Positions 4,385-12,731 of a stretch of DNA of 31,056 nucleotides are shown piece by piece. Made by a program: the position numbers and the translations under genes. The notes below the pieces were generated by a model. It was not told where the DNA came from. It searched no databases and worked only from the letters and a program-made list of their open reading frames with translations. Numbering within the stretch: position 1 is the first letter of the stretch; every line of letters starts with the position of its first letter. Source of the stretch: Escherichia coli (GTDB lineage: Bacteria; Pseudomonadota; Gammaproteobacteria; Enterobacterales; Enterobacteriaceae); NCBI RefSeq assembly GCF_003334335.1, contig NZ_QOWQ01000047.1. One strand, written 5' to 3'.

Positions 4385-5608
4385 TCATGAACACCATTTA
4401 AAATTACCATCATTAATATCATATAAAAATATATTTTTACTAAAACATGAATTGTATATATTTATTAGCTCAGGAAAATTATCAGGGTTCACCTTCAAAT
4501 TAACCTGAATGTTATGCTTAATTTCACCCAGTAGTTCTTCATGTGTGGATTTTATTATCCCATTATTATAATCGATAAATGCACACATGTTTTTTATGAA
4601 TTCAAAACCTTTTCCTGTATACAGTTTAATGAATGCCACCAGAGCAAACATTTCAAGATGTAGCCATAATGCTACGTTAGTTTTTTGCAAAGTATAAAAA
4701 ATTGAATTCGCCACTTTTTTACTTATTGCTCTTTTATACTGTGATCGAGCAAGATTCAGTAGCGGAAGCTCTCGTTCAATAAATGAATGTGAAAAGACTG
4801 GATAAATTGATGTCGGAAACCTTTCAGGCCTTATGATATTTTCTATTTCCACCATAAATCTATCCATAGAAAGAAAGTCACTTTCTTTTTTTATTCTGGT
4901 ATAGAGACCGCCTTTATTCCTTTCTGAGGTTTGTTTTCGTGCTATCCCCCCTAACAATTTCTCTAATTGTTTATTTATCTTCGTATAATTAAATACAACC
5001 ATTCTTCTTATCATCCTCGGAAGGATAATAATATCAGTGCTTGAATCACTTGAACGGCAATTATTATTTATCCATGCAACTTCAAGTTGCAGTATCGGAA
5101 CATTAACTTTTCTGGGGTGAATATCACTCTGATATCGTTTTTTGTATGCGTTTTCATTAAGATATTCTCTGCTGTAGAGAAACTTATAGCAATATAATCT
5201 GATAATATCTTTTATGTAAAATTTAAATAGTTCACCTGTAACAGATATATGTTTTCTGCTCAGTAACTCCTGTGTATTAAGCCATTCCCGTGACCGAAGC
5301 ACACCCTTGTGAAAACTTTTTCTTACTTGCTTTGAGGCACGGCATTGATGTAATATTTTTGCGTCCTCAATAATTCTCTTTCCCGTTTTATTTTTTGCAG
5401 CATCTCTTACTCCATAAAATATCTCCCGGTCCAGACTTTTGTCATATTTACTGATTATACGACAAATATTCCTGACCCGACGATTCTCTTTATTTCGCTT
5501 CCATAGCTTATAATGATCATCGCATAACCTTAAGGCATTTGCCTCATCAAATTCTGAAACAGGATTACTGCATTTTTTATTCCGACAAATACCTTTGTTT
5601 TTAGCCAT
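4385..5608 (-). CDS. Orphan hypothetical protein, 407 aa, very Lys/Arg/Asn/Ile-rich and very AT-rich. The N-terminus has a Cys/His motif (C-x4-C-x17-C-x2-H: CRNKKCSNP...CDDHY) suggestive of a zinc ribbon. No family recognised. It is a candidate accessory, abortive-infection or defense-type cargo gene.
   Basis: Long uninterrupted ORF with an ATG at 5608 and a GA-rich RBS (gggaagaagagt) upstream. GC content is far below the flanking genes, roughly one-third by eye (not computed). It is located in the variable slot of a CP4-like island. Confidence 0.6.
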   Translation of the reverse strand: MAKNKGICRNKKCSNPVSEFDEANALRLCDDHYKLWKRNKENRRVRNICRIISKYDKSLDREIFYGVRDAAKNKTGKRIIEDAKILHQCRASKQVRKSFHKGVLRSREWLNTQELLSRKHISVTGELFKFYIKDIIRLYCYKFLYSREYLNENAYKKRYQSDIHPRKVNVPILQLEVAWINNNCRSSDSSTDIIILPRMIRRMVVFNYTKINKQLEKLLGGIARKQTSERNKGGLYTRIKKESDFLSMDRFMVEIENIIRPERFPTSIYPVFSHSFIERELPLLNLARSQYKRAISKKVANSIFYTLQKTNVALWLHLEMFALVAFIKLYTGKGFEFIKNMCAFIDYNNGIIKSTHEELLGEIKHNIQVNLKVNPDNFPELINIYNSCFSKNIFLYDINDGNFKWCS

Positions 5609-5708: not shown

Positions 5709-7214
5709 ATGCCATTCAGCAATTCTTCCCTCTCCGCGCAAGTGAAATCATATCTGACGTTTCTTCCTGAAGAAATACGCCAGAAAATCCTTGAACATCT
5801 CCACGGTGTTATTCATTACGAGCCCGTGATTGGCATTATGGGTAAATCCGGCACCGGCAAGAGCAGCCTGTGTAATGCCATTTTTCAGTCCCGTATCTGC
5901 GCCACGCATCCCCTGAACGGCTGCACCCGCCAGGCTCATCGTCTTACCCTGCAGCTCGGTGAACGCAGAATGACGCTGGTCGATCTGCCCGGCATTGGTG
6001 AAACACCGCAGCATGATCAGGAATACCGAGCGCTTTATCGTCAGTTACTGCCGGAACTGGATCTGATTATCTGGATCCTGCGGAGTGATGAACGTGCGTA
6101 TGCTGCCGATATTGCCATGCATCAGTTTTTACTGAATGAGGGCGCAGATCCCTCGCGCTTTCTGTTTGTTCTCAGCCATGCCGATCGCATGTTTCCTGCT
6201 GAAGAATGGAATGCCACAGAAAAATGCCCGTCCCGTCACCAGGAACTCTCACTGGCGACAGTAACAGCCCGGGTGGCCACCCTGTTCCCTTCATCATTTC
6301 CGGTACTCCCCGTAGCCGCGCCTGCAGGCTGGAACCTTCCAGCGCTGGTGTCACTGATGATCCACGCGCTGCCACCACAGGCAACCAGCGCAGTTTATTC
6401 ACATATCCGGGGGGAAAACCACTCTGAACAGGCCCGGAAACACGCACAACTGACTTTTGGTGAAACCATCGGGAAAAGTTTTGACGACGCCGTTGCCCGT
6501 TTCAGTTTTCCGCCCTGGATGTTACAGCTTCTGCGCAAAACCCGGGACCGCATTATCCACCTGCTGTTCACTGTGGCATCCTTCTCCACCTCCGCCGGTA
6601 ACTGGGCTGTCAAAAACGGCTGGTGCCAGACCATGACGGAAGATGGTCAGGCGCTGGTAATGCTGAAAAATGGCACGATTGGTATTACCGGCCTGATGCA
6701 GGGATGCCCGAATGGCGTACAGACGCTCCTGGGCAGCCGTATCAGTATTAACGGTAACCTGATCCCCACATCACAAATGTGTAATCAGCAGACGGGATTC
6801 AGGGCTGTTGAGGTGGAAGTCGGACAGGCGCCGGAAATGGTCAAAAAAGCCGTTCACTCCATAGCAGAGCGTGATGTGTCCGTTTTACAGGCATTTGGTG
6901 TACGAATGGAATTCACCCGCGGTGATATGCTGAAGGTCTGTCCGAAATTTGTCACATCACTTGCCGGTTTTTCCCCGAAACAGACACCCGCCATTAATAA
7001 AGATTCCGTCCTGCAGGCTGCCCGGCAGGCATACGCCCGGGAATATGACGAGGAAACAACAGAAACCGCTGATTTTGGCTCTTACGAAGTAAAAGGCAAT
7101 AAGGTTGAGTTTGAAGTGTTCAATCCTGAAGACCGTGCGTACGACAAAGTGACCGTCACGGTTGGTGCTGACGGTAATGCCACCGGTGCCAGCGTTGAAT
7201 TTATCGGAAAATAG
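5709..7214 (+). CDS. Island GTPase of the YeeP/YfjP/YkfA family (50S-ribosome-binding GTPase-like; P-loop [16 protein letters not shown]). It continues in frame for about 210 additional C-terminal residues of unknown origin, giving 501 aa versus ~287 aa for the K-12 paralogs.
   Basis: Residues 1 to about 285 align closely with my memory of YfjP/YkfA ([90 protein letters not shown]). The ORF then runs a further ~650 nt with coding-like composition. Confidence 0.8.
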
Positions 7215-7219
7215 CTGGT

Positions 7220-7453
7220 ATGTCGGACTGTCACCCTGTTTTATTGCCCGAAGGCCCTTTCTCACGCGAACAGGCGATGGCTGTCACAACAGCTTACCGC
7301 AATGTGCTTATTGAAGATGATCAGGGAACGCATTTCCGGCTGGTTATCCGCAATGCTGAAGGGCAGCTACGCTGGCGGTGCTGGAATTTTGAACCTGATG
7401 CCGGAAAACAGCTTAATGCGGGGCTCGCCAGTGAGGGAATTCTCAGGCAATAA
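7220..7453 (+). CDS. DUF905-family small protein (YkfF-like), 77 aa.
   Basis: The [55 protein letters not shown] pattern matches YkfF-type proteins. Its position between the GTPase and the DUF932 gene is conserved in CP4-like islands. Confidence 0.6.
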
Positions 7454-7551
7454 ACGTCTTCATTTCATCCATCAGGCCACGTCTTCTCCGGGAGACGTGG
7501 CTTTTTCATTTATTACACCAGTAAATCTTAACCACCAATAAGGAGCAAATC

Positions 7552-10259: not shown

Positions 10260-10637
10260 ATGAAAACATTACCTGTATTACCCGGGCTGGCGGCCAGTTC
10301 ACGCCCGTCTCCGGTTGAAATCTGGCAGACACTGCTCACCCGACTGCTGGATCAGCACTACGGCCTTACGCTGAATGACACACCATTCGCTGATGAACGT
10401 GTGATTGAGCAGCATATTGAGGCAGGCATTTCACTGTGTGATGCGGTGAACTTTCTCGTTGAAAAATACGCGCTGGTACGTACCGACCAGCCGGGATTCA
10501 GCGCCTGTACCCGTTCTCAGTTAATAAACAGTATTGATATCCTCCGGGCACGCCGGGCAACCGGCCTGATGACACGCGACAACTACAGAACGGTAAATAA
10601 CATTACCCTGGGTAAACATCCGGGGGCGAAACAATGA
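10260..10637 (+). CDS. cbtA: CbtA/YeeV-family toxin (inhibitor of FtsZ/MreB polymerisation), 125 aa. The true start is the ATG at 10260, not the longer TTG/GTG-extended ORF listed from 10119.
   Basis: MKTLPVLPG.AASSRPSPVEIWQ.LL.RLLDQHYGLTLNDTPFADERVIEQHIEAGISLCDAVNFLVEKYALVRTDQPGFSACTRSQLINSIDILRARRATGLMTRDNYRTVNNITLGK matches YeeV. Confidence 0.8.
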   Translation: MKTLPVLPGLAASSRPSPVEIWQTLLTRLLDQHYGLTLNDTPFADERVIEQHIEAGISLCDAVNFLVEKYALVRTDQPGFSACTRSQLINSIDILRARRATGLMTRDNYRTVNNITLGKHPGAKQ

Positions 10638-11056
10638 AACAGGCCCTGACGCTGGAAGCCGACAGCATTAATGCGCAGGCGCTGAACATGGGGCGCATTG
10701 TCGTTGACGTCGATGGTATTGAGCTCGCTGAACTGATTAACAAAGTCGCTGAAAACGGTTATTCACTCCGCGTGGTGGATGAACGTGACGCTACCGAAAC
10801 ACCGGCGACTTCTGCCAGCCCTCATCAGTTGCCGGAAGACAATACAGTGATACAGAGCGTGATGCCATTAACCACTGAAACAGCGCTGGATATCCTCATT
10901 GCGTGGCTGCAGGACAATATCGACTGCGAATCGGGAATTATCTTTGACAACGATGAGGATAAAACGGATTCGGCAGCACTGTTGCCCTGTATCGAACAGG
11001 CCCGGGAGGATGTCCGGACTCTTCGTCATCTGCAGCTTCTGCACCAGAACCGGTAA
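10634..11056 (+). CDS. YeeW-like protein, 140 aa. Its ATG overlaps the cbtA stop (ATGA overlap), implying translational coupling.
   Basis: Assigned mainly from conserved synteny (the gene after cbtA in CP4-like islands). My direct sequence recall is weak. Confidence 0.5.
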   Translation: MKQALTLEADSINAQALNMGRIVVDVDGIELAELINKVAENGYSLRVVDERDATETPATSASPHQLPEDNTVIQSVMPLTTETALDILIAWLQDNIDCESGIIFDNDEDKTDSAALLPCIEQAREDVRTLRHLQLLHQNR

Positions 11057-11983: not shown

Positions 11984-12093
11984 TCCCGAGTGTGATTCCC
12001 TTTCGATATCAAAAGGGACTGCGGGTATAATTGAGGGTATATTTTTAATCAAACCAAATAAATTATATTAATATCAATATGATAAAAGAAATT

Positions 12094-12115
12094 TTCGATT
12101 CCGAGTCCGGCACCA
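12094..12115 (+). repeat. tRNA-Phe 3'-end fragment (TTCGATTCCGAGTCCGG-CACCA, one G shorter than the canonical pheU/pheV 3' end). This is the attachment-site direct repeat marking the island boundary.
   Basis: 22-nt match to the 3' end of E. coli tRNA-Phe (…GGTTCGATTCCGAGTCCGGGCACCA). Upstream of it is AT-rich island DNA. Downstream is the native pheU terminator and then cadC. Confidence 0.7.
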
Positions 12116-12126
12116 AATTCATATAA

Positions 12127-12157
12127 ACGGACCTCCACGGAGGTCCGTTTTTCGTTT
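12127..12157 (+). terminator. Rho-independent terminator (acggacctcc-ac-ggaggtccgt plus TTTTCGTTT), the native pheU-type terminator retained next to the att repeat.
   Basis: Perfect 10-bp GC-rich stem with a 2-nt loop followed by a T-run. Confidence 0.6.
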
Positions 12158-12731
12158 CAGGACGCCACGATTTAAGCGTTCTGCCTCCAAATCAATTCTA
12201 CCGAACTCAACCAGATTCTCCCCACATCACCAGCAATTTGCGGGCATATCCCAATTCGGGAAAATTTGTTCCTGAGCTATAGCACTAACTGACGTGAAAT
12301 GTCGTGCGGCCCCGTGATGCTGTTGAACGTCAAATGACGTCATCAGGAGCGTAACGCATCCATAAAGCACAACACCGGTCTGAACGGCGACTGATGAGAT
12401 TTTCTGAATGAGAACAAAGAGAAATGTATCAGTTCGCTTGCTCATGCAAAGACTAACAATCCATTAAAATAGTAAGTGCTCCGGACAATTTTCCATGGAT
12501 TATTTTCTGAACATTTTTCTTTGGCAAAGATGATGAATTTTGATGGTAAGGAATATTACTTCTGGTTCTCAGTAAAATCCTTTCGTAATACTATGTAATC
12601 AAGAAGTTTATGGCTGGTAAAAATAACGTCTTGCATTCACCAATAATATGTAAATAAACCCATCTATAGATGGTAAAAATAGGTTGTGGCAATTATCATT
12701 GCATCATTCCCTTTTCGAATGAGTTTCTATT

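Follow-up and report, generated by a model that had tools for sequence, protein, structure and literature searches.

The open reading frame at 5709-7214 on the + strand of the analysed window (31,056 nt of an Escherichia coli contig, NZ_QOWQ01000047.1) encodes a protein of 501 amino acids, which very probably is a chimera of an island GTPase and the product of the next gene, formed by one clone-specific deletion at the sequence CCTGCTG and carrying a passenger that is likely inert. We infer that the fusion event was recent, neutral or mildly deleterious, and confined to one clone.

GTPase part of the chimera

ORF calling and translation of the window gave an ATG start for this frame, and the only Pfam domain found in its product was MMR_HSR1 (P-loop GTPase) at residues 41-142, with a score of 54.6 bits compared to a gathering threshold of 21.9 for PF01926. 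In the translation, the G1 motif (GxxxxGK[ST]) can be read as GKSGTGKS at residues 45-52 and the G3 motif (DxxG) as DLPG at residues 92-95. This confirms the first-pass annotation in its description of a long open frame with a GTPase at its head. Judged by its sequence, the head is a P-loop GTPase of the YeeP/YfjP/YkfA type.

The part derived from the GTPase gene covers residues 1-284 (5709..6559, +) and showed 2 mismatches in 857 nt compared to the allele of strain ZYB39, while the identity to the alleles of the islands L001 and L009 was 98.7%. Related GTPases in RefSeq comprise 294 amino acids and end 8 residues past ...IIHLL. These 8 terminal residues, [IV]TLW[DE][RH]LF, are kept in all three intact GTPase alleles that were compared and are missing in the chimera. 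The form expected of a family member is a standalone protein of about 290 amino acids ending in ...IIHLL[IV]TLW[DE][RH]LF, whereas the chimera comprises 501 amino acids and continues with the sequence of a neighbour instead. In its position it agrees with the family, since it is located in a CP4-type island upstream of the genes for DUF905, DUF932, antirestriction, RadC, DUF987 and CbeA/CbtA, an order also seen in L001, L002 and L009. A normal length of about 500 amino acids, which would have made the frame ordinary, does not apply to this family: the 90%-identity cluster containing the 501-aa protein has 1,222 members, and among the 15 listed the full-length relatives comprise 294 amino acids, the query alone being long.

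Deletion junction

The window was aligned with ZYB39 as the left and E06 as the right parent type. These three-way alignments placed the junction at 6560..6566 (+), at 7 nt of microhomology, CCTGCTG, found in the GTPase gene at its 3' end (codons H-L-L) and in a gene for a 225-aa hypothetical protein at its 5' end (codons P-L-L). Around these 7 nt, the two genes share an imperfect similarity of about 22 nt, CC[A/C]CCTGCTG[G/T]TCAC(AC)TGTGG. At the junction, the GTPase gene reads …ATTATCCACCTGCTG followed by GTCACACTGTGGGA…, the 225-aa gene reads …CTTTTTCCCCTGCTG followed by TTCACTGTGGCATCC…, and the window reads …ATTATCCACCTGCTG followed by TTCACTGTGGCATCC…, with ATTATCCACCTGCTGTTCACTGTGGCATCC as the string spanning the junction. 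The window thus corresponds to the GTPase gene as far as CCTGCTG and to the 225-aa gene from CCTGCTG on. Local BLAST of the window with L001 and L002 showed the same in the form of overlapping pieces, in which the left piece ends at 6571-6580 and the right piece starts at 6550-6553 (overlaps 6553-6571 and 6550-6580).

On the protein level, the GTPase sequence R-I-I-H284-L285-L286 is followed by F287-T-V-A-S-F, with F287 being F11 of the 225-aa protein. Residues 1-286 of the GTPase are therefore joined in frame to residues 11-225 of the neighbour, which puts the junction at 286/287 and gives a tail of 215 amino acids, close to the boundary of about 285 and the tail of about 210 amino acids estimated before. 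Compared to the arrangement of E06, the window lacks 175 bp, and compared to the one that includes a gene for a helix-turn-helix (HTH) regulator it lacks 1,090 bp; no homologue of this regulator was found anywhere in the window. Since the immediate parent island is absent from the complete genomes, the size of the deletion is left at either 175 or 1,090 bp.

An in-frame deletion joining the 5' part of the GTPase gene to a neighbouring gene had already been considered in the first-pass annotation, with flu or yeeR as candidate partners. The mechanism holds, the partners do not: tblastn of the tail against MG1655 2,066,000-2,081,000 (K-12 CP4-44) gave a best E value of 0.21 over 14 amino acids. 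The actual partner is nevertheless a neighbouring island gene, namely the one for the 225-aa hypothetical protein, which lies between the GTPase gene, with or without the HTH regulator gene, and the DUF905 gene.

Tail and its partner family

The tail (6567..7214, +) comprises codons 11-225 and the stop codon of the neighbouring gene with an identity of 99.7% to E06. Its first residues, 287-296 (6567..6596, +), are the remnant of the signal peptide of the partner, as determined from the parent N-termini and the family alignment, and are now internal. The parent N-termini begin with MNTR(T/M) and end with (A/T)SA directly before GNW. In the window, the native start codon, the ribosome-binding site and the n-region (MNTRxLFPLL) of the partner are deleted, and the tail consequently has neither a start codon of its own nor an N-terminal signal peptide with basic n-region, hydrophobic core and A-x-A site. 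Without its own start codon and ribosome-binding site, the tail can be produced solely as the C-terminal end of the GTPase. Four invariant cysteines were kept at residues 306, 333, 358 and 411, corresponding to C30, C57, C82 and C135 of the parent plus 276.

Elsewhere, the partner is a gene of its own. Standalone copies are located at L002:3966-4643 and L001:5919-6596, and the family was found in 1,842 of the 5,426 complete E. coli genomes. A search with the tail among 5.8 billion proteins resulted in 66 clusters with a canonical length of 225 or 229 amino acids, all named "hypothetical protein" and all from Enterobacteriaceae (Escherichia, Klebsiella, Citrobacter, Enterobacter, Lelliottia and Salmonella). 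Except for two chimeric singletons of aberrant length, none of the 66 clusters contained a Pfam domain. Searched alone, residues 288-501 gave 0 matches in Pfam and NCBIfam, which agrees with the earlier remark that the tail carries no recognisable motif, and Pfam, NCBIfam and PHROGs gave nothing significant for the tail and the full 225-aa parent. The same holds true for a sequence-profile search of the PDB with the family alignment, in which no match at E <= 1 was obtained. The separate search of the tail proposed in the first-pass annotation was therefore productive with respect to homologues, i.e. the standalone family of 225-229 amino acids, and without result in Pfam, NCBIfam and the PDB.

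Several singletons contain a portion of the 225-aa protein next to additional sequence or show odd lengths, namely P0018 (281 aa), P0045 (362 aa), P0058 (260 aa, with the RadC Pfam domain) and P0074 (with the antirestriction Pfam domain). They suggest that the 225-aa gene has been involved in further chimeras or frameshifts, of independent origin, in other assemblies.

In the alignment of 20 family members, residues 1-20 are variable, with a basic residue close to the N-terminus, a core of hydrophobic residues and a small-x-small site, and the conservation sets in sharply at A20-G21-N22-W23. This pattern is apparently that of a Sec signal peptide in front of a disulfide-bonded periplasmic or secreted protein, and the four invariant cysteines probably form two disulfides. 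The AlphaFold2 model of the 225-aa protein was of moderate confidence (pLDDT 69.6, with residues 1-18 below 50) and showed an N-terminal half rich in beta structure, followed by a helix and a four-stranded sheet at the C-terminus that were modelled with confidence. The C-terminal module of the family is cystatin- or PepSY-like.

Same locus in other genomes

A megablast search of the ORF against the 5,426 complete E. coli genomes gave hits in 1,878 records; in 1,821 genomes, 80% of the ORF or more was covered. Among the matches listed, the best 30 of 1,878, all 30 records contained the ORF in two pieces over about 2,592 nt and not over 1,506 nt, and these records carried the annotation 'GTPase family protein', 'helix-turn-helix transcriptional regulator' and 'hypothetical protein'. 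In strain P393-F10 (L001), for example, the GTPase gene (885 nt, 294 aa) is followed by the genes for the HTH regulator (226 aa) and the hypothetical protein (678 nt, 225 aa), and then by those for DUF905, DUF932, antirestriction, RadC, DUF987, a YeeU-type antitoxin and the CbtA toxin. Strain STEC719 showed an identical layout. A second common arrangement, observed in the strains E06 (L002) and EcE.ESBL.COL (L003), comprises no HTH gene, and a spacer of 118 nt lies between the GTPase gene and the 225-aa gene. With a probe of 181 nt spanning the junction, none of the complete E. coli genomes was matched at an identity of at least 99%, and 25 of the 25 matches listed consisted of two pieces. Altogether, the architecture of GTPase and tail in one protein was found in one clone only; elsewhere, among the matches listed, the parts are separate genes.

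These data bear directly on the proposal, raised in the first-pass annotation, of a true GTPase with a new effector or sensor domain attached, taken here in the form of an evolved and conserved two-domain architecture whose C-terminal domain is dedicated to the GTPase. The uninterrupted ORF with a tail of normal coding character would fit this proposal, as would the persistence of the fusion in several isolates and sequencing runs. However, the carriers are 99.96-100% identical in their DNA and hence represent one clone, the parts are separate genes in the complete genomes among the matches listed, and the tail family is standalone in six genera. Furthermore, the tail begins in the middle of the signal peptide of the partner, which is the mark of a random break and not of a domain boundary. 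An evolved two-domain protein is accordingly regarded as extremely improbable, and the conservation of 501-aa versions asked for earlier extends only to near-identical carriers of one clone.

Occurrence of the fusion in independent assemblies

The exact 501-aa protein is present in the NCBI databases as RCQ57045.1, evidently from the contig of the window itself, and as HAH9022117.1. It is also encoded on GCA_012738575.1, SRR1815430 (same contig, 4 samples), SRR32903638, SRR27904302 and SRR30938087. In total, the same fusion was found in six further independent assemblies with DNA identities of 99.96-100% to the window: the SRR contigs were 100% identical over 2.9-7.5 kb and GCA_012738575.1 was 99.965% identical over 8.5 kb. 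Since the identical fusion recurs in independent assemblies, it is not a sequencing error, and since all carriers are this similar in their DNA, they belong to a single clone.

Three independent Logan short-read contigs with the fusion all stop exactly at 7509, upstream of the DUF932 gene. This suggests that 7509 is the start of a multi-copy repeat common to the paralogous islands of that genome.

A false read-through caused by a frameshift or a collapsed repeat could be imagined, because a genome can hold several copies of the island family (up to 6 places in the megablast search) and because short-read assemblies break nearby, as seen for the contigs ending at 7509. Against this, the 501-aa product and its DNA are identical in assemblies from different runs and pipelines, the repeat at the junction comprises 7 nt and lies far under the k-mer sizes of assemblers, and the difference is a deletion of 175 bp or 1,090 bp and no frameshift of 1-2 nt. 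An artefact of sequencing or assembly is thus hardly conceivable, and the frameshift error that had been suspected as a cause is excluded by the exact protein on independent assemblies.

Nearest alleles and island mosaicism

The nearest allele of the GTPase part, that of ZYB39, is an intact 294-aa gene ending with …IIHLLVTLWDRLF and followed by an HTH gene; the ZYB39 island does not contain the 225-aa gene. The nearest allele of the tail is the intact 225-aa gene of E06 with 2 mismatches in 649 nt, both of them synonymous. The GTPase of E06 is more divergent from the head of the chimera (94.9% identity), and the identity of E06 to the window amounts to 92% in the DUF905 segment and 98.8% in DUF932. 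No complete genome was found that contains both nearest alleles. Since these islands are mosaic in general, this can be explained by an immediate parent that has not been sampled.

Compared to the GTPase alleles of L001 and L009, which are identical to the window at 5709-6310, the 230 nt at 6311-6540 showed 11 substitutions with 6 amino acid changes. A cluster of mutations from error-prone repair was considered for this segment and rejected. Since the intact allele of ZYB39 comprises the same patch, it represents an allelic recombination patch and not mutagenesis associated with the break.

The different origin of the two nearest relatives, together with the absence of the parent island from the complete genomes, is a counterpoint to a single plain deletion. 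The same junction could also have been reached by homology-facilitated illegitimate recombination, either between two different copies of the island or between an island and incoming DNA, with homologous DUF905/DUF932 sequence anchoring one end and the microhomology joining the other. The left side being nearest to the islands of ZYB39, L001 and L009 (98.7-99.8%) and the right side being nearest to the island of the E06 type (99.7%), whose GTPase is so much less similar, would be in accordance with such a route, and genomes do hold several paralogous islands. On the other hand, these islands are mosaic everywhere, so that a mosaic parent with a subsequent plain deletion would explain the pattern equally well, and recombination of distant chromosomal copies would give large rearrangements. 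This route is therefore considered to be the less likely one, with perhaps a minor share of the probability, and the plain deletion within one island is preferred.

Island context

Positions 1 to about 12,000 of the window represent the distal end of a CP4-type island. It contains a YagK/YfjJ-type gene, two ORFs of 176 and 407 amino acids with no Pfam domain, the chimera and the genes for DUF905, DUF932, antirestriction, RadC, DUF987, CbeA, CbtA, DUF5983_N and DUF4942. Directly downstream of the chimera, the DUF905 gene (7220..7453, +; PF06006, E = 2e-30) is intact and is the gene that normally follows the 225-aa gene; the same gene order was observed in L001, L002, L003 and L009. On the other side, the intact ORF of 407 amino acids (4385..5608, -) is divergent from the GTPase gene. 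The N-terminus of its product is rich in Cys and Lys, and it is called 'hypothetical protein' in all related islands, where it is conserved with an identity of over 99%; on the protein level, 99.75% was measured. A general decay of the island as background of the fusion is unsupported, since all other island genes are intact.

The DUF5983-type ORF at 10634-11056 encodes 140 amino acids, of which the N-terminal ~94 residues are 57% identical to relatives of 162 amino acids and the C-terminal half is unrelated. On the basis of this comparison, the ORF is one with a swapped C-terminal module and not a truncation.

In the region 11984-12731 the island adjoins cadC, and the chromosomal genes past it encode CadC, an amino acid permease, a Lys/Orn decarboxylase, a POT transporter, a class II Lys-type tRNA synthetase, a DcuS-like sensor kinase, DcuB and a class I fumarase. 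We take this flank to be the cad-lysU-dcu-fumB neighbourhood beside pheU on the K-12 map. ARAGORN detected no tRNA in the window, and the direct repeat of pheU (23 nt of the tRNA-Phe 3' end) was absent from it with up to 3 mismatches allowed. Due to the missing tRNA and tRNA-Phe repeat, the right boundary of the island is undefined within the window. Islands at pheU with YeeP-type GTPases have been described, and in the literature found YeeP-family GTPases of pheU, pheV and selC islands were mentioned only in passing (PMC6174562).

Proposed origin and fate of the chimera

The observations show a single deletion, through illegitimate recombination or slippage, in an island similar to CP4-44/CP4-57, by which two adjacent genes of the same orientation were fused. 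The deletion removed the last 8 codons and the stop codon of the GTPase gene, the intergenic region, and the ribosome-binding site, the start codon and the first 10 codons of the partner, as well as the HTH regulator gene if the parent carried one. The reading frame was kept by chance, with partner sequence directly after …RDRIIHLL. The chimera would be expressed from the signals of the GTPase gene, and its product would be a cytoplasmic GTPase lacking the conserved C-terminal motif and carrying a passenger of 215 amino acids that is normally periplasmic. Since this passenger would remain in the cytoplasm, whose reducing conditions keep its cysteines from pairing in disulfides, it is probably misfolded or inert. 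As separate functions, the secreted protein and perhaps also the HTH regulator would be lost.

With an ORF that is intact and undecayed, a retained or new function may nevertheless exist. The tail showed zero non-synonymous changes compared to E06 and no sign of decay; however, a test for selection is precluded, since the event is too recent and the carriers are identical. One conceivable function would be that of an internal signal or anchor, provided by the hybrid segment before GNW, with the GTPase in the cytoplasm and the tail exported or tethered in the periplasm. The mean Kyte-Doolittle value of the hybrid core (1.89) is comparable to that of the native signal h-region (1.83), a cluster of basic residues precedes the core, and the native A-x-A-type site follows it. 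Yet such a topology can only be inferred, the core, with 12 residues including a His, would be a short membrane anchor, and it comes after a folded domain of 280 amino acids. Moreover, no signal of conservation or selection is available from carriers that represent one clone. We therefore regard this function as highly improbable. Slightly more doubtful still is the full version, in which the chimera would be a membrane-tethered GTPase whose tail is exported or cleaved off in the periplasm, and thus a newborn gene with a new topology in a circulating clone. An inert fusion product of the deletion is the preferred reading.

The chimera is an ordinary strain-specific lesion and no new two-domain protein. 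Beyond the annotation, it is of little import: what the ORF calls for is a label as a chimera of two island genes that is probably a pseudogene, rather than as a novel multidomain GTPase. More interesting is the partner gene, which is widespread, being present in about a third of the complete E. coli genomes and in other Enterobacteriaceae, and which belongs to a family of cysteine-containing, apparently secreted island proteins without family assignment.

Comparison with known systems

Compared to the island GTPases of the YeeP/YfjP/YkfA type (CP4-44, CP4-57 and CP4-6), residues 1-286 of the chimera are 97-99.8% identical to the 294-aa members in RefSeq, which are named 'GTPase family protein' or 'YfjP family GTPase', and the head is 32% identical (E = 1e-25) to the yeeP pseudogene of K-12. 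In contrast to these GTPases, the chimera has lost the 8 last residues and gained 215 foreign ones, resulting in 501 instead of 294 amino acids.

A similar comparison can be made for the unnamed 225-aa family (WP_089660317.1, WP_161620543.1 and WP_001097305.1). Residues 287-501 of the chimera correspond to residues 11-225 of these proteins with an identity of 97-99.7% and comprise all four cysteines, whereas the family's start codon, its ribosome-binding site and the initial 10 residues of its signal peptide are gone.

With respect to its origin, the chimera resembles the microhomology-mediated deletions in decaying prophages and islands, which arise by replication slippage or illegitimate recombination, give rise to pseudogenes or in-frame gene fusions, and likewise show a short direct repeat (here 7 nt, exact), a clean loss of the sequence in between and an occurrence in one lineage. 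Compared to such deletions in general, nothing essential differs, the preservation of the reading frame being the only accident, and the locus can be seen as a clean natural case of a microhomology-mediated in-frame fusion.
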